DNA of 30,112 bases from an uncultured bacterium (GTDB lineage Bacteria > Fidelibacterota > Marinisomatia > Marinisomatales > UBA1611), in NCBI GenBank assembly GCA_964399115.1, contig CAYNPR010000001.1, positions 1 to 30,112 of the forward strand, given 5' to 3'. Numbering within the stretch: position 1 is the stretch's first letter; each line of letters starts with the position of its first letter. A model generated the notes under the pieces. The model had not been told where the DNA came from. It did no database searches and worked only from the letters and a program-made list of their open reading frames with translations. Positions 4,475 through 28,652 of the stretch are shown one piece after another. Position numbers and translations under genes: made by a program.

Positions 4475-5278
4475 TTAGGAAGCAGATGCTTCAATTGATT
4501 TTTTTGATTCATAATTTAATTCCCAGGCCAGTCTTAATCCCAAAAGCACCAAGTCAGTACGAACATCATGAAAAATGTTTTCAGGTTCAAAAAGCCTGGA
4601 AAAACCTCCCGTAGCTAAAATAATTGGCGTATCTGATTTAAAAAGTTCCTTTGTCATTTGATTTGTAATTTCCTTTACCATCCCTAGCTGTCCAAAATAG
4701 AGACCGGACTGGATGCTGCCTGAAGTGGATCGACCGATAACGTGTTCTCTCCTCAATATTTCAACGGAAGGAAGCTTAGCAGTTTTAAGTGAAAGAGATT
4801 CCATTGATGTTTCTAGTCCCGGGAATATGGCTCCGCCATAATAGATTTTCTCCTTATTAATAGCATCCAGAGTCGTGGCTGTGCCAAAATCAACCACAAT
4901 TATATTTTTTCCTGGGAACAAGTTGACGGCGGCAAGCCCGCCTGCAATACGATCGGCACCAACCTCAAGCGGGTTACGATATCGAATCTGGAGACCTGTT
5001 TTTACACCAGGTCCAAGTTCAAATGGCTCTAACTGAAAATATTTTAAACAAGCATTCCGGAAAGAATGAACCCTGTCCGGGACTACGGAACAAAAACTAA
5101 TGGCCTGGATTTTTTCTGGAGAGATAGCATTTTCCCTTAATGCGCTTCTTAAAAAAGTTCCCATCTCATCGGAAGAACACCTGTAGGCAGATGACTTGCG
5201 GAATTGCAGAACCAGTTCCGCATCTTCATATATTCCGCAAAGTAGTGACGTGTTCCCTATATCAGCAGTTAGGAGCAT
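4475..5278 (-). CDS. coaX: Type III pantothenate kinase
   Basis: MLLTADIGNT, VGADRI, VDFGTATT, GGAIFPG, ATGG. Start set at ATG 5278. Confidence 0.95.
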   Translation of the reverse strand: MLLTADIGNTSLLCGIYEDAELVLQFRKSSAYRCSSDEMGTFLRSALRENAISPEKIQAISFCSVVPDRVHSFRNACLKYFQLEPFELGPGVKTGLQIRYRNPLEVGADRIAGGLAAVNLFPGKNIIVVDFGTATTLDAINKEKIYYGGAIFPGLETSMESLSLKTAKLPSVEILRREHVIGRSTSGSIQSGLYFGQLGMVKEITNQMTKELFKSDTPIILATGGFSRLFEPENIFHDVRTDLVLLGLRLAWELNYESKKSIEASAS

Positions 5279-6483
5279 GAGAAATCCGTACAAATTTTGA
5301 CGAGGGATTGTGCTAGTTCTTCAGATGATTGTGATGAAAAAATCTTTGTTGATTCATTCTCCAATATCTGAAAATTTGTTTGAGCACCATTTTCTCGATC
5401 CGAAACATTATTATGAACCACATAATTTGCATCGGTTTTCTTAAAAAGATTTGCAATTGCACTCAATCGTTCTTTACTATTATGGCTTGAAGTTAATTTA
5501 AAAGGAATGAAACAGGTTTGTTGACCTTGGCACCACGATCTGATCTTTTCTGCAATCTTTGGTGTTGGTTTTAACTTAATGTCCAATGCTTTTCCGGATG
5601 ATTCAATCTTTGTTTTCTGATCAAGTGGTTGACCATTGATCCCAACCACAAAATAATCACCAACAGCCGCCAGATGGATTATAGCTGAAAATTTGTGTTT
5701 CTTCAGTTTCTTTTTCATTCGATTTTTAAGATCGATTACAGTTTCAAAATGCTCAAGAATGCAAGGTTTCTTTGGTAATTTGGCTTGGGATCCGTGAAGG
5801 TAATAAACTTCCCAGTTTTGAGCGTTGAATTGGTCGGCTATCGCTGCTCCAGTTCCACCACTGCTCAAGTTGGTAATATAACGGACTGCGTCAATAGGTT
5901 CTCGTGTTCCACCCGAAGTAATAAGCACTGTCTTTTTAGAAGCGGGATTAAGTTTTTTCAAGATTTCAGCCAGTATTTCATCAGGCTCGAGCATTCGTCC
6001 CCACCCTTCATCCCCGCACGCCAGCGCGCCAGAATCGGTTCCAAGAATTGTTGCACCCCAGTCATTGAGCTTTGCTAAAGAATTTTGAGTGGCTGGGTGA
6101 CCCAACATTTTTGTATTCATGGCCGGAGCTATAAAATAAGGCTTGTCGAAATCATGTGCTAAAAATAAGGCTGTAACTAGGGTTGAACCGTCACCGGCAG
6201 CCATTTTGTTTATTGTATTCGCTGTTGCCGGTGCGCAAATAACAAAATCAGCCCACTTTACAAAGTTGATGTGAGCCATCATATTCCCACTCTCGTATAT
6301 GTCGCCCATAACAGGTCTACCTGTTAAGCCTTCCAATGTGGCATCCCCTATAAAACAAAGAGCCGAGTTTGTAACGACTGTTTGAACTTCATGCCCATCC
6401 TGTACCAACTTGGAAATCAGCTGGGCTGATTTGAATGCGGCAATGGAACCCGTTATTTTGAAAAGAATTTTATAGGACAACAT
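5269..6483 (-). CDS. coaBC: Bifunctional phosphopantothenoylcysteine decarboxylase/synthetase
   Basis: ITGSIAAFK, APATANTINK, APAMN, LACGDEGWGRM (CoaC); LITSGGTREPIDAVRYITN, HLAAVGDY (CoaB). Confidence 0.95.
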   Translation of the reverse strand: MLSYKILFKITGSIAAFKSAQLISKLVQDGHEVQTVVTNSALCFIGDATLEGLTGRPVMGDIYESGNMMAHINFVKWADFVICAPATANTINKMAAGDGSTLVTALFLAHDFDKPYFIAPAMNTKMLGHPATQNSLAKLNDWGATILGTDSGALACGDEGWGRMLEPDEILAEILKKLNPASKKTVLITSGGTREPIDAVRYITNLSSGGTGAAIADQFNAQNWEVYYLHGSQAKLPKKPCILEHFETVIDLKNRMKKKLKKHKFSAIIHLAAVGDYFVVGINGQPLDQKTKIESSGKALDIKLKPTPKIAEKIRSWCQGQQTCFIPFKLTSSHNSKERLSAIANLFKKTDANYVVHNNVSDRENGAQTNFQILENESTKIFSSQSSEELAQSLVKICTDFSCS

Positions 6484-7228
6484 TATCTATGAGTCTCACT
6501 TTCCCAAGTCTTACGGCACCAAATCTTCGACCACTATGTTCTTCAATATACTCAACATGAAACTGTATGCGTTCCAATTCATTCGTTATAACCTCTGGCG
6601 AATTATTTGTTAATAATTGGTGGTAAAACTGATGAGCAATTCCTCTTTCCTGTTTTGAAAGTCTTTCATTCCGCGAGCTGAGCGCAAGTCCATCACTTTC
6701 ACGTATAGTAGGGCACAAAATGATTTTGGTATTCATGAAAAATGCATCTGTCATATTTTTCACAAGTTTGTATTGCTGATAGTCTTTTTCACCCATATAC
6801 ATTCTATGTGGTTTTACTGTATTTATCAGTTTCATCACCACGGTTAAAACACCATCAAAATGTCCTGGCCGCTTCTTACCTTCCATTATTTTGCTGTGAT
6901 CTGTTTCATTGACACGAAAGCGGTACCGATCAGAATACAATTCATCGTAGGTAGGCAACAAACAATAACTCACGCCTGCATTTGTCAGTAATGCCAGATC
7001 CTGTTCCAGGTCTCCAGGGTAGTTTTCATAGTCATTACGATTATTGAACTGAGTTGGATTGACATAAATGCTTACAACTGTAATATCATTTTCATTCTTG
7101 GATTGTCTCACCAACGAAAGGTGACCTTCGTGGATAGCTCCCATGGTAGGTATAAATCCAACTGATTTCCAATTTTTGGTTTTACTTTGAATTTTTTTTA
7201 ATTCAATAAGTTTAGTGATGGATTTCAC
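6470..7228 (-). CDS. panC: Pantoate-beta-alanine ligase (short, 252 aa)
   Basis: PTMGAIHEGH, VSIYVNPTQF, RPGHFDGV, GEKDYQQ, GLALSSRN, terminal RLIDNV. Confidence 0.96.
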   Translation of the reverse strand: MKSITKLIELKKIQSKTKNWKSVGFIPTMGAIHEGHLSLVRQSKNENDITVVSIYVNPTQFNNRNDYENYPGDLEQDLALLTNAGVSYCLLPTYDELYSDRYRFRVNETDHSKIMEGKKRPGHFDGVLTVVMKLINTVKPHRMYMGEKDYQQYKLVKNMTDAFFMNTKIILCPTIRESDGLALSSRNERLSKQERGIAHQFYHQLLTNNSPEVITNELERIQFHVEYIEEHSGRRFGAVRLGKVRLIDNVVL

Positions 7229-7229
7229 T

Positions 7230-8018
7230 TTAATAACTTTCCTGTTTCGATGGAAAATTCTTATTCTTCACATCATCGCAATAACCATTCAAGGCTTCCA
7301 ATATTTTATAATGTGCGTCCAGATAGGTTCGCAAGAATTTTGGCTTAAAACTTGGATTCATACCTAGAAGATCATGCCAAACTAAGATCTGACCGGATGT
7401 GTTCACGCCCGCTCCAATTCCTATAGTTGGTACACTAATTGCGTTCGTAATTATTTTACCCAGTGAAGATGGTACCATTTCTAAAACTATTGAGAAGACT
7501 CCGGCCTGTTCAAGCATCTTAGCGTTCTCAATTAGTTGTGTAGCGGTTTTTTGACCCTTCCCCTGGAGTCTATGACCCCCGAGTTGGTGTACGGATTGAG
7601 GCGTCATCCCCAGATGCCCCATAACAGGTACTCCTGATCTGATAATGTATTCAATGTCTGTAAGTGCATCTCCAGCACCTTCGATCTTTACCGCCTGAGC
7701 TCCGGACTTACAAAACCGATCTACCGTTTCCATTGTAAGAGTCTGCCCTTTGCGGTGAGCCAAAAAAGGCATGTCTGCAATAAGCGGTTTAGATTTTATG
7801 CCACGGTTTACCGCAGCCACATGTAAAGTCATCATATCCACCGTGGCAGGAATAGTCGTTTCGTGGCCATGCATAACCATGGCCAGACTATCTCCCACCA
7901 ACACAGCATCAATATCACTTTTATCCAAAATGCAGGCGGATAGATAATCGTAGCAGGTGATCATGGAAATTTTCTGACCAGATTTATTTTTTTGTTGAAA
8001 AACCTGGAGGTTAATCAT
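7230..8018 (-). CDS. panB: 3-methyl-2-oxobutanoate hydroxymethyltransferase
   Basis: MITCYD, LVGDSLAM, ADMPF, VKIEG, MGHLGMTPQS, IGIGAG, GQILVWHDLLG. Confidence 0.97.
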   Translation of the reverse strand: MINLQVFQQKNKSGQKISMITCYDYLSACILDKSDIDAVLVGDSLAMVMHGHETTIPATVDMMTLHVAAVNRGIKSKPLIADMPFLAHRKGQTLTMETVDRFCKSGAQAVKIEGAGDALTDIEYIIRSGVPVMGHLGMTPQSVHQLGGHRLQGKGQKTATQLIENAKMLEQAGVFSIVLEMVPSSLGKIITNAISVPTIGIGAGVNTSGQILVWHDLLGMNPSFKPKFLRTYLDAHYKILEALNGYCDDVKNKNFPSKQESY

Positions 8019-16925: not shown

Positions 16926-17441
16926 CTAGAATTCATATCCCAATGAAATACCTCCACCGACCCACCATGTTGCACCCCCTTCTGTCTTCCGGACAAGGTT
17001 TCCTCTTCCCGTCAATCGAATCTCAATAAACTCATCCAAGGGATAATCTAAACTGCCCCCTACAATAAACCCGGGACCTGCATGATAATAACCCGTACAG
17101 GCAGTCGCGCTAACACTTGCATCCCCAATGAAAAATCCAGGGCCAAGTCCAATCTGATATGCAATACCACTAAAGTCATCAGCCCCACGAAAATCATAAT
17201 AGGCGAGCTCGGCAATGACATTTATAAAGAAATTTTGAATAAATAATCCATAAGGAGAACCAACGGACAAACCAAATACTGGATTAATTTCATCATAAGA
17301 GTCAAAGGTCGATCCCCCGATTATTGGATAACCGGCATATAGATTCATACTCCAGTTGGGCACGAGCTCATATTCCACTGTGTCAACAGTCTGGGAGGAC
17401 AGAAAACACATGAAAACCGGTAAGAAAATAATTTTTTTCAT
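16926..17441 (-). CDS. Small outer-membrane beta-barrel protein
   Basis: Signal peptide MKKIIFLPVFMCFLSS (ATG 17441), Gly/aromatic amphipathic strands, C-terminal ISLGYEF BAM-type signature. Confidence 0.8.
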   Translation of the reverse strand: MKKIIFLPVFMCFLSSQTVDTVEYELVPNWSMNLYAGYPIIGGSTFDSYDEINPVFGLSVGSPYGLFIQNFFINVIAELAYYDFRGADDFSGIAYQIGLGPGFFIGDASVSATACTGYYHAGPGFIVGGSLDYPLDEFIEIRLTGRGNLVRKTEGGATWWVGGGISLGYEF

Positions 17442-17619
17442 AGGTATTTTTCTTCTATATTTTTTTAAATTGGTTAATATTTCTACAGATCCGTATCGCA
17501 AATATAACTATGAACCATTACTACACAAAAACCACTCGAAGTATAAAAAATAACCATAATAATCCGAGATCTATTCATTTGATACCATATGGAAACAACT
17601 GGTATTTTTCGTTCTTACT

Positions 17620-18888
17620 TCACGGTCTGATAATCCAATCAGCATTATAGATATCTATGAATGCCGGTGCAATCCTGTCAGTTGGCCTATCCTGTGCTAG
17701 ACTGTAGAAAAATCCGACATAACCGGTATCCGGGCTAGAGTGTCGGCCGTTATTCTGAGTTTTTCCGCGACGTTTCCCGATAGCCACCATTTCGAATTCA
17801 GTAAACTTTTCCAGTTCAAGATCATAGGTAGCATTCCCAAGTAAATTGGTTTGCATACCGTGGTCGAGATCATGGGTGGGCGTCCAGTCATTTTCTCCAA
17901 GAAGCCATGGACCTTTTGCAACTGCCTTGGAATCCCCTTTGATTTTGACTTGAACAATAGACTGCCGTCGCTTTAATACTTCAATTTCCAGATGTGATTT
18001 CTTGATTTCCTGTGGCGCAAAGGGTAAGGTCTGACCTCTTATATTATCCACGAGGTGTAAACGAAATAAGCGATCTTTTAAAATATCAGGAAGCTGGTAG
18101 ACATCACCTTCATGAGGATCAGCGGGTAACCACATACGGGCTTCAGTCTTATTAAACCAAACATGATCCATGTTCCAACGATCGCCCCGTTCAGATTGAA
18201 CAGGAGGAGACGTTATCAAATCTGCTTTTACTGATTTAAGAATTAACCCACCCCCAGGATAGCTGTTTTCCCAGCGGTGCATTGCTTTTATCTTATGATT
18301 CCTGGGTAATTGCTGTTCAGATAATGATAAATTATTCCATTTCTTCAAACCACTCCTGATGGTCTCCAGAACATCATCTGAATTGAGAGAATTGATGGAA
18401 CTCAATAGTTTGCCACTAGGACTGCATACATATATCCCTTGGCGTGTTCCGCCCGCTCTGCGATAGTGGCCTGTGTTTGCCATCTCTTGAAAAATAATGG
18501 CATCTTTATCTTCAACCCGCTGCAGGCGCCATACTTCATCGGATGTTGGAATAAATTCTTTTGCGATGTTGATAATCCTAGAATCTGACCAAACAGACCT
18601 CCGGCCCGCAATGCCATTATTTCAGGTACAACCGAGTGGATGACCATTCATGACCCAAAGCAACATCGGTTTTCTCTGAGCATTCGCTTCGATCAAACCT
18701 TCTTGGATCGAACTCCGCCAAGGGATGGATGTCCAGACAAGTTCAATTTCTGTAGGCTGGATGAAATCGCGCCACATTTCATAATTCTGTGGTGTGAGAT
18801 TGAATTTATTTTGGTTAGTATTACAGCCAAAAAGAAAAAGAAATCCGATAGAAATAATAATTACTTTAGCGTGAAGATGTCGTTTCAT
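17620..18888 (-). CDS. Putative selenoprotein: thioredoxin-like lipoprotein, 422 aa with an in-frame UGA at codon 89 (18624-18622). Joins track ORFs 18622..18888 and 17620..18483
   Basis: SD GAGGA 6 nt before the ATG; lipobox LFGC(22); ...KPMLLWVMNGHPLGCT-TGA-NNGIAGRRSVWSDSRIINIAKEFIPTSDEVWRLQRVEDKDAIIFQE-MANTGH... continues in frame with no further stop; SECIS-like hairpin follows. Confidence 0.75.
18586..18616 (-). promoter_or_regulatory. Candidate bacterial SECIS element
   Basis: After the UGA: lower stem UGGC/GUCA, 3x3 internal loop, upper stem GCGGGCC/GGUCUGU (7 bp incl. three G-U), apical loop GGA starting with G 19 nt after the UGA. This is within the spacing of the bacterial SECIS consensus. 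Folded by eye. Confidence 0.6.
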
Positions 18889-19061
18889 CCCTAATCCTCA
18901 TAGGAGTTACAGTTCGATTTTTAAATTTATAAAAATGACCAAGTATAAAAGTTCTATTTTGCGAAGTGGCATCTACCATATGTTCATACAAAGTTATCAA
19001 AACTGTTTTGCGCATAAAACTATTATTAATCATTTCTGTAACTCCATTAATTTTCATCACC

Positions 19062-19490
19062 ATGAAGAAGATGAAAAAAATCCTTTTTATCTGCACCGGC
19101 AACAGCTGCCGCTCCCAGATCGCGGAGGGGCTGCTGAGAGATTTGGCTGGAGATAATTTTGAGGTATTCAGCGCCGGGAGCCATCCTTCCCGGGTTCATC
19201 CCGCATCCATTGCCGTTATGTCGGAATGGGGAATTGATATTTCAAATCATACTTCGGACTGGACTAATGAATACCTGGATAAGAGTATTGATATCGTTAT
19301 TACCGTCTGTGATAATGCCAACCAGGCTTGCCCTACGTTTCCCGGTGACGTAAAACGGATCCATTGGAGCATCGATGATCCCTTTCATGGATGGGGCGCA
19401 GAACCTGCAGACTTGGAACCATACCGCGAAACCAGGGAGATTCTTAAGGAAAAAATCGAATCCTTTTTAAATGGAGAAACCGATAGATAA
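19062..19490 (+). CDS. arsC: Arsenate reductase, thioredoxin-coupled LMW-PTP type
   Basis: ILFICTGNSCRSQIAEG, SAGS, VITVCDNANQACPTFPG, HWSIDDP. Start is ATG 19062 or 19071. Confidence 0.88.
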   Translation: MKKMKKILFICTGNSCRSQIAEGLLRDLAGDNFEVFSAGSHPSRVHPASIAVMSEWGIDISNHTSDWTNEYLDKSIDIVITVCDNANQACPTFPGDVKRIHWSIDDPFHGWGAEPADLEPYRETREILKEKIESFLNGETDR

Positions 19491-24045: not shown

Positions 24046-24698
24046 TGTTTTTCCCTTACAAGGATGATAATCCTCGGATATTGATTCCTTATGTGACGTA
24101 TGGCATTATCATGTTGAACGTCATTGTTTTCCTTGGACAATTTCTCATCAACAATACCGACCCTAAAATGGGCAGAGCCATTATTTACGGTTTTGGTTTT
24201 GTGCCTTCTGAATTCAATTTATTCACCATTTTTACTTCCATGTTCATGCACGGCGGAATAGCGCACATTGTTGGGAATATGTGGTTTCTCTGGATCTTTG
24301 GAGACAATGTGGAAAGTATATTGGGCCATGTGAAATACTGTGTTTTTTATTTATCCTGTGGCGTGGGTGCAGCCCTGGCACAATTCATTGTAGAGCCAAG
24401 CTCAATCATACCCATGGTTGGAGCCAGTGGCGCCATTGCAGGCGTCTTAGGTGCCTATATGATTCGTTTTCCAAAGGCACGAGTTCATGTTTTTGTTTTC
24501 TTCATATTCATAACCACCATTGCAGTTCCCGCACAAATTGTCCTCGGATTTTGGTTTTTAATGCAATTAACGAGCGGTCTTGGTAGTTTGGGACTTGATA
24601 CCACCGGTGGTGTTGCTTGGTTTGCCCATGTTGGCGGTTTTATTATCGGGGTAGTTTTGCTGAAGTTTATCCAGAATTTTCGAATCGAAAGAATATGA
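24045..24698 (+). CDS. Rhomboid family intramembrane serine protease
   Basis: SMFMHGGIAHIVGNMWFLWIFGDNVE, VGASGAIAGV, VAWFAHVGGF. Confidence 0.95.
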   Translation: MFFPYKDDNPRILIPYVTYGIIMLNVIVFLGQFLINNTDPKMGRAIIYGFGFVPSEFNLFTIFTSMFMHGGIAHIVGNMWFLWIFGDNVESILGHVKYCVFYLSCGVGAALAQFIVEPSSIIPMVGASGAIAGVLGAYMIRFPKARVHVFVFFIFITTIAVPAQIVLGFWFLMQLTSGLGSLGLDTTGGVAWFAHVGGFIIGVVLLKFIQNFRIERI

Positions 24699-25078
24699 AT
24701 CAGGAATTGATCCAAACCGCCCTTGAAATGCGCGAAAAGGCTCGAGCCCCTTTTTCAAATTATAAGGTTGGGGCAGCTATAGAAACAGAATCGGGTACAA
24801 TCATCGGCGGTTGCAATGTGGAATCATCCAGTTACAGCTTGACGTGCTGTGCTGAACGGACGGCCCTTTTTCGCGCGATTGCAAAGGGGCATACCTCGTT
24901 TAAAGCGCTGGCCATTGCATCTAAAAACGGAGGAATGCCCTGTGGTGCCTGCAGGCAGGTGATCTGGGATTATTGCAAGAACGTACCGATCTACGTCTGC
25001 GATAAAAATGGACTTATCAAAACAACGTCTTCGTCCGAACTGTTACCGGACGCATTCGATGAATCCCATTTGAAATGA
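24695..25078 (+). CDS. cdd: Cytidine deaminase (homotetrameric type)
   Basis: APFSNYKVGAA, GCNVE, CCAERTA, PCGACRQ. ATGA overlap gives start 24695. Confidence 0.95.
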   Translation: MNQELIQTALEMREKARAPFSNYKVGAAIETESGTIIGGCNVESSSYSLTCCAERTALFRAIAKGHTSFKALAIASKNGGMPCGACRQVIWDYCKNVPIYVCDKNGLIKTTSSSELLPDAFDESHLK

Positions 25079-25689
25079 ATACAATCATAATCGGTATTGC
25101 AGGCGGAACCGGATCAGGGAAAACATCCCTGGCAAAGGGAATCCTGGCAGAATATGGCCAAGGCGAAGTGGCCGTTATCGAACAGGATTCCTATTACAAG
25201 GATTTATCTCATAAACTGCCCAAAGAAAGGGCTCAGCATAATTTTGACCATCCGGATGCCATTGATATCGACCTGTTTCAGGATCATCTAAAAAAATTAA
25301 TTGACGGTAAACCTATTCAAATCCCTGGTTATGATTTTTTAAACCATGTCCGCACAGAAAAGACAATGTCGGTTACGCCTCATCACGTTGTAGTTGTTGA
25401 AGGAATTTTAGCACTTCACTATTCTCAATTGCGGGAATTATTCGCAATTAAAATATTTGTAGAGACCCCGGCCGACATCCGTTTTATTCGACGATTAACC
25501 CGAGATATTAAGGAAAGAGGGCGAACGCCCGAATCGGTGAACGAACAATATTTGGCCACGGTTCGACCCATGCATGAACAATTTGTAGAACCATCAAAAT
25601 ATTATGCTGATATCATTGTCCCGGAAGGAGGACAAAATAAGGTAGCCATTGATTTGATCAGAACAAAAATAAATTCAATCATAAAATAA
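25075..25689 (+). CDS. udk: Uridine kinase
   Basis: GIAGGTGSGKT, QDSYY, NFDHPDA, VEGIL, RRLTRDIKERGR, VRPMHEQFVEPSK. Confidence 0.96.
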   Translation: MNTIIIGIAGGTGSGKTSLAKGILAEYGQGEVAVIEQDSYYKDLSHKLPKERAQHNFDHPDAIDIDLFQDHLKKLIDGKPIQIPGYDFLNHVRTEKTMSVTPHHVVVVEGILALHYSQLRELFAIKIFVETPADIRFIRRLTRDIKERGRTPESVNEQYLATVRPMHEQFVEPSKYYADIIVPEGGQNKVAIDLIRTKINSIIK

Positions 25690-25690
25690 C

Positions 25691-26254
25691 ATGACGTTAA
25701 CACCCCTTAATTCAGGCTGGATTGAAGTGATCTGCGGCAGTATGTTCAGTGGTAAAACCGAGGAATTGATACGCCGTCTCCGACGCGCACAGATCGCAAA
25801 GATGAACATAACAATCTTTAAGCCCCGTTTAGATTCAAGGTACAGCGATGGCCACATCGTGAGCCACAATCAACTTAAGATGAAGTCACGTATTGTAAAA
25901 TCAACGGACGAGATTTTAGAACTTGCTCAAGATGCGGATGTGATTGGAATTGATGAAGGACAGTTTTTTGATGATTCTATCTTGGATATCTGCAAAACCT
26001 TGGCAGATTCAAGAAAAAGAGTGATAGTTGCTGGTTTAGATACTGATTTTCGAGGGCTGCCATTTGGCCCTATGCCCCAACTTATGTGCGAAGCGGATTA
26101 CTTGGATAAACTGCGGGCAATTTGCGTAAAATGTGGAAACCCTGCGTCCTATACTCAACGTACATCATCTGACGCAGAACAGGTCGTAATTGGAGAATTG
26201 GATAAATACGAAGCCCGTTGCAGAAACTGCTTCCAACCACCGAAAATGAACTGA
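25691..26254 (+). CDS. tdk: Thymidine kinase
   Basis: GSMFSGKTEELIRR, IDEGQF, VAGLDTDF, Zn-site CVKC...CRNC. Confidence 0.97.
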   Translation: MTLTPLNSGWIEVICGSMFSGKTEELIRRLRRAQIAKMNITIFKPRLDSRYSDGHIVSHNQLKMKSRIVKSTDEILELAQDADVIGIDEGQFFDDSILDICKTLADSRKRVIVAGLDTDFRGLPFGPMPQLMCEADYLDKLRAICVKCGNPASYTQRTSSDAEQVVIGELDKYEARCRNCFQPPKMN

Positions 26255-27477
26255 TGATAAAATTGACAGGATTTATTGGAATCGTAGTATTGTTGGGAAT
26301 TGCCTATGCCCTATCCAATAACCGTAAAGCCATTAAACCCCGAATCGTTATTTGGGGCATAGGGTTACAGGTTTTTCTTGCCCTTATCATCCTAAAAATT
26401 CCACTGGTCAAATCAAAGTTTTTCTTTATTGATAAATTGTTTAAGAAATTGATCAGTTTTTCTGATGAAGGAAGTGATTTCTTATTTGAATCATTCGTCC
26501 CAGGGGTTGGTTATCATGAAGCCATGATAAATTTTGCATTTCGGGCATTACCTGTGATCATCTTTTTTTCCAGTTTAATTGCGGTTACTTATCACTTCGG
26601 TATTATACAGTTTATCATAAAATGGGTCGCTCGTGTAATGGAAAAAACCCTGAAAACCAGCGGTGCTGAAACATTAAGTGTTTCTGCAAATATTTTTGTG
26701 GGCCAGACAGAAGCGCCCATTTTAATCCGTCCATTCATTAACAACATGACCAATTCGGAATTAACAGCAGTAATGACCGGTGGGTTTGCTACGGTTGCCG
26801 GCTCCGTTTTAGCTCTATATGTTTTATGGCTCAATGCAATCCCCGGGATTGCGGGTCATATGCTGGCTGCCAGTATCATGTCTGCCCCCGCTGCATTGGT
26901 TATGGCCAAAATAATCTATCCCGAGACTGAACAATCGGATACAATCAGTGATCTACACATCAGTATCCAAAAACAAGATGCAAATGCCATGGATGCACTT
27001 GGCAGAGGAGCCACCGACGGATTGAAATTAGCTGCAAATGTGGGGGCTATGCTGGTTGCATTTGTATCTATTATTACCATGATAAATTATACACTAGGTT
27101 ATTTTTTTGATACAACCATGCAGGAAATAATGGGGAGAGGTTTTCAACCTCTAGCTTGGACCATGGGAATTCCCTGGGATGAAGCAAAAATCATGGGCAC
27201 TCTCATGGGTGAAAAAATCGTGTTAACGGAATTAATTGCATATTCAAATCTCGGTGAAATAATTAATAATGGCGAAATATCCGAACGCACAGCAATTATT
27301 GCCAGTTACGCATTGTGCGGTTTTGCTAATTTTGGATCCATTGGGATTCAGTTGGGTGGTATCGGTGGGATGGCTCCAGAAAGAAGAAAAGATCTTTCAA
27401 AACTTGCATTGAAAGCCATGATCGGGGGTGCACTTGCTTCATGGCTGACCGCTACCATAGCTGGAATATTAATATAG
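26254..27477 (+). CDS. nupC: CNT-family nucleoside:cation symporter
   Basis: FAFRALPVIIFFSSL, NIFVGQTEAP, GGFATVAGS, ASIMSAPAA, LCGFANFGSIGI. TGATG overlap gives start 26254. Confidence 0.95.
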   Translation: MIKLTGFIGIVVLLGIAYALSNNRKAIKPRIVIWGIGLQVFLALIILKIPLVKSKFFFIDKLFKKLISFSDEGSDFLFESFVPGVGYHEAMINFAFRALPVIIFFSSLIAVTYHFGIIQFIIKWVARVMEKTLKTSGAETLSVSANIFVGQTEAPILIRPFINNMTNSELTAVMTGGFATVAGSVLALYVLWLNAIPGIAGHMLAASIMSAPAALVMAKIIYPETEQSDTISDLHISIQKQDANAMDALGRGATDGLKLAANVGAMLVAFVSIITMINYTLGYFFDTTMQEIMGRGFQPLAWTMGIPWDEAKIMGTLMGEKIVLTELIAYSNLGEIINNGEISERTAIIASYALCGFANFGSIGIQLGGIGGMAPERRKDLSKLALKAMIGGALASWLTATIAGILI

Positions 27478-27496
27478 ACAAAGAAAGGGTGAAATC

Positions 27497-28057
27497 ATGA
27501 AACTGTTGATCATGGGACCGCCGGGGGTAGGAAAAGGGACCCAAGCAACTCGTATCAAAGATAAACTACATATTGCTCATCTCTCTACCGGAGACATCCT
27601 TCGGGCCGAAATCCAAGCGGAAAGTAAGATCGGGATGGAAGCAAAAACTTATATCGATGCAGGGGAACTGGTTCCGGATAAAACACTGTTGGAAATCATT
27701 CAAAACAGAATCATAAAACCTGATTGTGAAAAGGGATATCTACTGGACGGCTTCCCGCGGACCTTGCCCCAGGCAGAAGGATTGGATAAAATTATGGACT
27801 CCAACAGCCATTCCCTGGATGCTGCCATCAGCCTGACCGCGGATGAGGATGAACTTGTTGAAAGATTGATAAAGCGGAGGCAGGAATCCGGGCGAAGTGA
27901 CGACACGGCGGAAATTATCCGAAACCGGCAAAAAATCTATTGGGAGCAAACTGCGCCATTGTTAGACTTCTACCATGGAAAAGGTATTCTCAAGGTTGTG
28001 GATGGCCTAGGAGAAATCCCCGAGATAACAAAAAGAATATTACAGGTTTTAATCTAA
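27497..28057 (+). CDS. adk: Adenylate kinase, short-LID type
   Basis: GPPGVGKGTQA, HLSTGDILR, GELVPD, LDGFPRT, short LID RRQESGRSDD. Confidence 0.93.
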   Translation: MKLLIMGPPGVGKGTQATRIKDKLHIAHLSTGDILRAEIQAESKIGMEAKTYIDAGELVPDKTLLEIIQNRIIKPDCEKGYLLDGFPRTLPQAEGLDKIMDSNSHSLDAAISLTADEDELVERLIKRRQESGRSDDTAEIIRNRQKIYWEQTAPLLDFYHGKGILKVVDGLGEIPEITKRILQVLI

Positions 28058-28058
28058 C

Positions 28059-28652
28059 ATGCTGAAGATTGGTCTCACCGGCGGTATAGGATCGGGGAAA
28101 AGTTCAGTCAGTGCTTTACTTAAAGAGTGGGGTACTTATATCTTCGATGCAGATACTGTTGCCAAAGATATCCTTGCCAATAATGAAACAGCCCAAAGTG
28201 AAATCATTGCTGAATTCGGGACAGACATTTTAGGCGTAGATGGGAAAATAGACAAAAAAAAACTATCCCGCATCGCCTTTCAGGATGAAGACCATCAGCT
28301 TAGGCTCAACACGATCATTCATCCCTATATATTCCGTGAAATTGATTCTGAATATGATAGAATCCTGGCAAAAGGGAAGCATGATGCTTTTATTGTGGAT
28401 GCAGCTTTGATCTATGAATCCGGAGCAGATACACACATGGATTACATTATTGTAGTAACCTCCCATTTAAAACTCAGAACGGAGCGAGTGCTCAGTCTTG
28501 GAAATCTTTCTCGTGATGAATTTTTCAATCGTATGGAGTTGCAATGGCCCGATGAAACCAAAGTCCATATGGCGGATTTTGTCATTCACAATAACGGAAC
28601 GCCGAAAGATCTCGAAAAGGAAACAAAAATAGTGTTTAAAAAATTGATCTAA
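28059..28652 (+). CDS. coaE: Dephospho-CoA kinase
   Basis: IGLTGGIGSGKS, DAD, LNTIIHP, DAALIYE, ADFVIHNNG. Confidence 0.95.
   Translation: MLKIGLTGGIGSGKSSVSALLKEWGTYIFDADTVAKDILANNETAQSEIIAEFGTDILGVDGKIDKKKLSRIAFQDEDHQLRLNTIIHPYIFREIDSEYDRILAKGKHDAFIVDAALIYESGADTHMDYIIVVTSHLKLRTERVLSLGNLSRDEFFNRMELQWPDETKVHMADFVIHNNGTPKDLEKETKIVFKKLI

Follow-up and report, generated by a model that had tools for sequence, protein, structure and literature searches.

A candidate selenoprotein family with a C-x-U motif and an uncharacterised β-rich domain, annotated as two hypothetical proteins in Marinimicrobia and other bacteria

The gene and its features

We analysed a DNA stretch of 30,112 nucleotides from an uncultured bacterium (GTDB lineage Fidelibacterota; Marinisomatia; Marinisomatales; UBA1611; assembly GCA_964399115.1, contig CAYNPR010000001.1, positions 1 to 30,112), referred to here as the window. 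On its reverse strand, at 17620-18888, lies a reading frame with a single internal TGA codon that probably encodes a selenoprotein, the internal UGA being read as selenocysteine (Sec). The mechanical list of open reading frames (ORFs) contains at this place an 88-aa ORF (18888..18622) and a 287-aa ORF (18483..17620). Both share one frame, and the second starts 46 codons 3′ of the internal TGA. Translation of 18888..17620 on the reverse strand gives MKRHLHAKVIIISIGFLFLFGC...LLWVMNGHPLGCT, followed by the TGA at 18624..18622. This first segment (MKRH...MNGHPLGCT) is 88 aa long, and after the TGA the frame continues for 333 sense codons to ...NADWIIRP and the terminal TGA at 17622..17620. The gene has the following features (CDS, coding sequence; SECIS, selenocysteine insertion sequence).

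17620..18888 (-): full selenoprotein CDS, 422 residues with Sec at codon 89, based on the translation and on homologues that have both halves and the in-frame TGA
18895..18899 (-): Shine-Dalgarno sequence GAGGA, 6 nt 5′ of the ATG at 18888, read off the sequence
18823..18888 (-): predicted lipoprotein-type signal peptide with the lipobox L-F-G-C22 at its end, from the sequence
18319..18798 (-): predicted N-terminal helices and thioredoxin-like domain (about residues 31-190), from the AlphaFold2 (AF2) model of the homologue P0250, mapped by alignment
18622..18630 (-): putative redox motif Cys87-Thr88-Sec89 (TGT ACC TGA), with the Sec-UGA at 18624..18622
18577..18626 (-): SECIS-like stem-loop within the CDS, with the inner stem-loop at 18609..18593 and the GGA apical loop at 18602..18600
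17623..18315 (-): predicted C-terminal β-rich domain (231 residues) with the motifs WNxDxxWF, HLVDNVRGQT and NGR, from an AF2 model and conserved columns

An earlier note on this DNA, made from the letters alone, had joined the two ORFs across the TGA following MNGHPLGCT and had pointed out a C-T-U motif, a lipobox, a hairpin with a G-first apical loop starting 19 nt after the UGA, and the absence of global recoding. The translation agrees with the joined frame of 422 aa and contains Cys87-Thr88-UGA89 as well as L-F-G-C22 at the end of the signal peptide, and the inner stem and GGA loop are present in the computed fold. Of the window's 33 long ORFs, 9 end in TGA, Pfam-supported genes among them; the code is thus standard and TGA is not globally reassigned.

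Conservation of the TGA codon

With the joined protein as query, 282 relatives were retrieved; each of the best 120 is 247-334 aa long, covers at most 78% of the query and begins after the TGA. An exhaustive search with the 333 residues that follow the UGA yielded 888 clusters at 50% identity, for which 150 representatives were listed; nearly all of these begin a few residues from the post-UGA position. The N-terminal side gave the corresponding picture. A profile of the UGA-spanning region matched 1568 clusters, and among the 120 listed only four read through the site, the others being N-terminal fragments of 65-143 aa. Those inspected among the listed matches stop at ...GCT or ...ACT. At the DNA loci of three homologues the sequence reads ...MNGHPLGCT-TGA-NNG...

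For a scan at the DNA level we took one genome per species and used an unrelated C-terminal pattern, [LF]VDN[VI]RGQT. This gave 80 loci from Neomarinimicrobiota/Marinimicrobia, Planctomycetota (Gemmataceae, Pirellulaceae, Phycisphaerales and others) and Armatimonadota/Fimbriimonadia, with 35-68% identity to the window protein. TGA is found at the identical column in all 80 loci and thus in three phyla. It is preceded by MNGHP[LMF][GA]CT, followed by [NGA]NG, and has a conserved N-terminal region upstream.

Two apparent sense variants at the Sec column were rejected. The W in P0270 is a TGA in the DNA that the gene caller translated with code 4. For the L in P0271 the DNA has TTA; the contig measures 996 bp, and the gene also carries an in-frame TAG, so that it is a degraded copy. 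P0273, with Arg at this column, was not traced to DNA.

Four metagenome-assembled genomes carry two paralogues of the family each, on different contigs (L025/L026, L034/L075, L037/L081 and L064/L074), and TGA is present in every copy. Four further loci (L053, L073, L082 and L018) had been binned as Glaciecola, Paceibacteria, Luminiphilus or Saprospirales. Their sequences fall among Planctomycetota-like or Marinimicrobia-like members, which makes mis-binning of these contigs probable. In the 190-aa protein P0143 the end of the C-terminal domain (...GKTQNNGRNLG) runs straight into the post-UGA segment (AGRRSVWSDP...); the probable cause is an assembly that became chimeric at shared AAYAAYGG words, the alternative being a tandem copy.

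A conserved SECIS-like hairpin follows the TGA

In the window, RNAfold predicts an inner stem GCGGGCC/GGUCUGU (18609..18593) closed by the GGA loop, which starts 19 nt after the UGA, and outer pairs that extend the hairpin to 18626..18577. The 91-nt fold does not stand out from dinucleotide shuffles (z = 0.04), but it is more stable than synonymous recodings of the same peptide (-12.3 vs -7.9 +/- 2.5 kcal/mol, p = 0.045).

We aligned 81 sequences over 48 nt from the UGA onward. Two alternative hairpins can be seen in this alignment. Hairpin A, formed by columns 16-22 and 26-32 around a GGA or GGC loop at 23-25, has the greatest stability in the window. Hairpin B, which is dominant in Planctomycetota, joins columns 19-26 to 30-38; it has a bulged U34 and the loop G27-U28-C29. 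Over the 81 sequences, 78.5% of the cells are paired in hairpin A and 83.5% in hairpin B; shifting the partners by 1-3 columns lowers this to 18-55%. There are also compensatory changes, for example G26-C30 to A26-U30 and G20-U37 to C20-G37.

Synonymous sites in the hairpin are also constrained. With each gene's own codon usage as expectation (genes of 35-74% GC), the third base of the Gly/Ala codon was C in 76 of 76 cases (28 expected) and that of the first Arg codon a purine in 75 of 81 (38 expected). The Ser codon was TCY in 60 of 66 cases (16.5 expected) and the Val codon GTY in 67 of 72 (39 expected). The same GC-rich hairpin codons are retained in AT-rich Marinimicrobia and in GC-rich Planctomycetota. 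At the peptide level, the hairpin codes for [GA]R[RQ]SVW. All Sec forms have this motif and none of the non-Sec forms has retained it, which fits a constraint on the RNA rather than on the protein.

Bacterial SECIS (bSECIS)-type criteria (stem of at least 6 bp, loop of 3-8 nt, G in the first two loop positions, loop start 16-37 nt after the UGA) are satisfied by 63 of the 81 real sequences (78%), by 26% of the recodings and by 10.5% of 714 other positions in the same genes. The loops of the family are mostly GUC, GGC, GGUCU or GGA and start 18-23 nt after the UGA. The SECIS-like hairpin proposed by the earlier note is therefore conserved across the family in its pairing, in its synonymous sites and by the bSECIS-type criteria. 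Taken together, the comparative sequence data support a reading in which UGA89 would be recoded and the hairpin in the next 35 nt or so would be the recoding signal.

The hairpin resembles the SECIS of E. coli fdhF in its GC-rich stem, its small loop containing G and U, and its fixed short distance to the UGA. It differs in that the apical loop of fdhF starts about 18 nt after the UGA, compared with 19-23 nt in the family, and in that the bulged U of the family hairpin, where present, is on the 3′ arm. The apical sequence of L075 and L081, GCAGGUCUGC, is one that we take to be identical to the fdhF apical stem-loop.

Predicted fold and export of the protein

The full-length structural model is the AF2 model of P0250, a homologue with Ala in place of Sec that is 33% identical to the window protein (mean predicted local distance difference test score, pLDDT, 89.3; predicted template modelling score, pTM, 0.88). 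It consists of N-terminal helices, a β1-α1-β2-α-β3-β4-α domain and an all-β C-terminal domain. Residues C70-T71-A72 are located in the loop between β1 (58-63) and α1 (75-84), with A72 at the Sec position. In this model β1 and α1 of one thioredoxin-like domain are thus encoded on opposite sides of the TGA codon. The best match of the N-terminal domain in a Foldseek search of the PDB was human AGR3 (3ph9; probability 1.00, target-normalised TM score 0.62, E = 6.6e-3). A thioredoxin-like pattern around the UGA had been suggested before; the modelling shows Cys87 and the recoded residue at the predicted β1-α1 position of such a fold, the redox position where CxxC normally sits. CxC motifs form a strained, relatively oxidising centre. 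By analogy, the C-x-U spacing, and the C-x-C of one Cys form, suggest a centre of the same kind here.

The C-terminal domain of the window protein (231 aa) was modelled by AF2 with a pLDDT of 91.1 and contains long antiparallel strands. It showed no meaningful match to PDB structures (TM score at most 0.3, none at E <= 0.001), and a PDB sequence profile search yielded nothing significant; the large uncharacterised C-terminal domain of the first description thus models confidently and has no recognisable relative in the PDB. The most conserved polar motifs of the family, WNxDxxWF, HLVDNVRGQT and NGR, are located in this domain. A catalytic tetrad like that of glutathione peroxidases, an idea that came from a conserved Gln and WNxD, was rejected, since the spacing is wrong and the WN motif is in the C-terminal domain.

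The signal peptide in the window has a basic n-region, a hydrophobic core and L-F-G-C22, in which the Phe at -2 is non-canonical with respect to [LVI][ASTVI][GAS]C. Marinimicrobia homologues keep a Cys after the hydrophobic segment (LFGC, LAGC, LIGC, FLSC and similar), and members from Planctomycetota have ordinary signal peptides. The expectation of an extracytoplasmic or membrane-anchored protein is in line with this export signal in the window sequence and with the signal peptides of the homologues.

Relatives without selenocysteine

Relatives without Sec are rare; they occur as uninterrupted proteins of 386-420 aa or as domains within larger ones. The residues at the Sec column are as follows.

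P0242: ...NPLACNCPSE, Cys at the Sec column
P0250 clade (8 clusters): ...HP[ML]ACTAGNG, Ala at the Sec column
P0200: GCGRHNG, Arg at the Sec column
P0220: GSASAAG, Ser at the Sec column
P0212: GTGDENA, Asp at the Sec column

The Ala forms (P0250 and P0390-P0396) are a tight clade of eight clusters of full-length proteins, in which Sec is replaced and the Cys is kept (ACT-A-GNG); VRYR[LM]WVW is found in place of the hairpin-encoded GRRSVW. P0212 is a protein of 1541 aa that starts with a Ser/Thr protein kinase domain, followed by a long repeat region, and carries the whole two-domain module at its C-terminus. The sequence hints at a redox-dead copy in signalling use. Because Sec is almost never swapped for Cys in the family, selenium itself is probably needed for the chemistry.

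Selenocysteine decoding in genomes that carry the family

Across 675 kb of loci, motif searches for SelA, SelD and SelB-type GTPases gave a single match, a selD in locus L030 (4540-5664, +), about 1.9 kb downstream of the family member. A HAMP/HATPase histidine kinase gene on the opposite strand lies between the two. This selD has an in-frame UGA of its own (TGA at 4651) in the UxxK motif near its N-terminus (...LTDYAACAG-TGA-AAKMPQGEL). Behind this UGA lies a 9-bp GC stem capped by a GUG loop, and the gene is annotated only from the ATG after the TGA. A selD with its own Sec-UGA means that the L030 genome must decode UGA as Sec. In addition, selA, selB, selC and selD are all reported for Gemmata obscuriglobus, Isosphaera pallida and two further planctomycetes (PMC4807772, S8 Table), and three SAR406 single-cell genomes are listed with an 'orphan' SelD and no known selenoprotein (PMC5029168, Table 1).

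Evaluation of the selenoprotein reading and its alternatives

We conclude with a probability of about 0.88, on comparative sequence evidence, that the two 'hypothetical' ORFs are one exported protein of 422 residues whose internal UGA is recoded as Sec. Several results weigh against this. None of selA, selB, selC and selD is present in the 30-kb window, and no tRNA-Sec was found in the window, which contains no tRNA at all, or in 60 related loci scanned. An Rfam scan of the hairpin region gave chance matches only and no SECIS model. The minimum free energy of the family hairpins differs modestly from that of synonymous recodings (mean z = -0.57, control windows -0.04), and the nominal z of 7-13 at synonymous sites is overstated, as related sequences were treated as independent. 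RNAalifold found no single consensus structure for the 81 sequences, because hairpins A and B overlap and compete. The Cys-for-Sec homologue, with C-N-C at the column, is a single cluster (P0242), and the remaining non-Sec forms with Ala, Arg, Ser or Asp are atypical for redox selenoproteins. The thioredoxin-like fold is based on the model of an Ala form of 33% identity and on a weak Foldseek E-value (6.6e-3), and the redox function and the envelope location are themselves inferred.

The earlier note had looked to the Sec column of the homologues for Cys and had regarded any other residue there as speaking against a selenoprotein. The expected Cys homologue exists in P0242. The objection holds insofar as most non-Sec relatives have a residue other than Cys; it loses force insofar as these are rare divergent clades that have lost the hairpin motif too.

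Among the alternatives, reading of the UGA by other means, i.e., by a suppressor or near-cognate tRNA (Trp, Cys or Arg) or after a lineage-wide reassignment, survives best and is nevertheless very unlikely. In its favour, the evidence for Sec machinery comes from genomes other than that of the window, and some gene callers give W at the codon under code 4. However, TGA terminates 9 of the 33 long window ORFs, this gene's own end included, and the same codon is retained in three phyla with standard codes. At the redox position of the predicted thioredoxin-like fold, a conserved Cys precedes the codon by two residues; the conserved G-loop hairpin follows the codon at SECIS spacing, and one family member adjoins the Sec-containing selD of L030.

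It is even less probable that the locus consists of two separate genes, with the UGA ending an 88-residue lipoprotein and the downstream protein made by re-initiation or from its own start. Gene callers annotate two genes everywhere, and in the window an ATG is available 46 codons downstream of the TGA. Yet no conserved start codon is found 3′ of the TGA in the aligned family sequences (n = 81): codon 4 is GTG in just 21 of 81, and the called starts vary, giving proteins of 247-334 aa. Two strongly conserved segments, NNGxAGRRSVWSD and FIPxxDEVWRLQ with its near-invariant D-E-x-x-R-L, are encoded 3′ of the TGA and still ahead of the window's first ATG. The TGA would also split β1 from α1 of a single thioredoxin-like domain, and the non-Sec relatives are continuous, full-length proteins, so that the possibility of two genes raised by the earlier note finds little room.

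A pseudogene or a sequencing or assembly error private to this contig can be dismissed (a private mutation or read error had also been considered by the earlier note): broken genes are most commonly recognised by a single in-frame stop, and one copy, L089, does look degraded (TTA at the site and a later in-frame TAG), but the same TGA in 80 of 80 independent assemblies from three phyla already refutes a private error, more than 1500 protein clusters and hundreds of split gene calls imply the same codon, and purifying selection acts on both sides of it.

Relation to known selenoproteins

Pfam and NCBIfam scans of the joined protein, with U replaced by C, gave no family at E <= 1, including the curated thioredoxin-superfamily models, and NCBI records label the fragments 'hypothetical protein'. 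An inventory from May 2026 lists 119 prokaryotic selenoprotein (sub)families, each with a domain model (PMC13188914). None of the 119 fits, including the four CxU families, which are Sec.1 (PF13192), UshA-like, rhodanese form 3 and ferredoxin-thioredoxin reductase (PMC13188914). The hidden Markov models of the CxU families (PF13192 Sec.1, NF041198, NF041203, NF041072) likewise gave no match at E <= 1. Literature searches on the motif strings and on selenoproteins of Marinimicrobia yielded no relevant work; unpublished or unsearchable lists may contain the family. In the Global Ocean Sampling (GOS) survey, detection was based on Sec/Cys pairs, and TGA candidates that had no homologues were put aside (PMC2398784). 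With Cys forms almost absent, this reliance would explain why the family was omitted.

The family shares with thioredoxin-fold selenoproteins of the UxxC/CxxU type (DsbA-like, DsbG-like, thiol:disulfide interchange and Prx-like; PMC13188914, Table 1) the predicted location of Sec between β1 and α1 of a thioredoxin-like fold. Many of those proteins are likewise exported, and the SECIS hairpin is directly 3′ of the UGA, within the ORF. The window family differs from them in its C-x-U motif, in the lack of a Pfam or NCBIfam thioredoxin-type match and in its fusion to a large β domain without relatives. Moreover, the UxxC/CxxU families are mostly Cys forms with occasional Sec, whereas the window family is almost without Cys forms. 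The known CxU families also have a Cys two residues ahead of Sec, but their models do not match and their domain architecture and size differ.

There is a further likeness to eukaryotic SELENOF (Sep15) and to the AGR/ERp18 branch of the protein disulfide isomerases, which are thioredoxin-like proteins of the secretory pathway and include the best structural match of the N-terminal domain, AGR3 (3ph9). Sep15 has a C-G-U motif at the same structural position. In contrast to these proteins, the window family is bacterial, has its putative SECIS inside the ORF, carries an extra C-terminal domain and shows no detectable sequence similarity to them; the resemblance is at the level of fold only (target-normalised TM score 0.62, E = 6.6e-3) and does not establish homology. 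The family is best classed as previously uncatalogued within the bacterial thioredoxin-fold selenoproteins, unusual in its near-obligate Sec, its C-x-U motif and its fold-orphan C-terminal domain.

Genomic neighbourhood

Clustering of 534 flanking ORFs showed synteny within lineages only and no partner common to the phyla. In the window, the divergent neighbour (18966-19490, +, likely start near 19062) encodes a protein of the low-molecular-weight phosphatase family with CTGNSCRS and a later VCDNANQACP pair, which is the pattern of the thioredoxin-coupled arsenate reductase ArsC. A functional link to this ArsC-like gene was considered and rejected, as the pairing is not kept in other loci. Just downstream of the selenoprotein gene, at 16926-17501 (-), is an ORF of 191 aa with a signal-peptide-like start and no Pfam match. 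Its 3′ end overlaps the 5′ end of a mechanically extended deoxynucleoside kinase ORF, and the real start of the kinase is probably further in. The window also contains a cluster for pantothenate/CoA synthesis at 4475-8018 (-; panB, panC, coaBC and a type III pantothenate kinase) and one for nucleoside salvage at 24617-28652 (+; cytidine deaminase, uridine kinase, thymidine kinase, a NupC-type transporter, adenylate kinase and dephospho-CoA kinase).

Proposed mechanism and significance

In the mechanism that we propose from the comparative evidence, UGA at codon 89 would be read as Sec by SelB and Sec-tRNA(Sec), which would be recruited by the G-loop hairpin that begins about a dozen nt after the UGA, inside the CDS. 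The mature protein would be exported and, in the window organism, lipid-anchored. It may act as a selenol/thiol oxidoreductase of the envelope that cycles via a selenenylsulfide between Cys87 and Sec89, and the C-terminal domain might hold a substrate or partner that is oxidised, reduced or isomerised.

The interest of this family lies in annotation and discovery rather than in a new mechanism. In every assembly examined, pipelines split the gene into two 'hypothetical proteins', and selenium use by the lineages that carry it is consequently underestimated. The mis-annotated family is large, with 888 clusters at 50% identity, and is found in abundant ocean bacteria (SAR406/Marinimicrobia), Planctomycetota and Armatimonadota. 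The 81 natural SECIS variants, from genes of 35-74% GC, offer material for studies of SelB recognition, and a confidently modelled β domain without structural relatives is joined to a C-x-U redox centre.

The family is also a concrete candidate for the selenium need behind the 'orphan SelD' of SAR406. A more far-reaching interpretation, which we regard as tentative and rather doubtful, is that this is an essentially Sec-obligate family of envelope enzymes with a new-fold substrate domain and a main selenium sink of SAR406/Marinimicrobia. If this were true, it would account for SAR406 genomes with an 'orphan' SelD and without a known selenoprotein (PMC5029168), and a major marine selenoprotein would have systematically escaped surveys based on Sec/Cys pairs. 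That Cys forms are so rare would then point to a chemistry beyond that of sulfur, for example with a peroxide, metalloid or metal substrate, and not to generic disulfide exchange.

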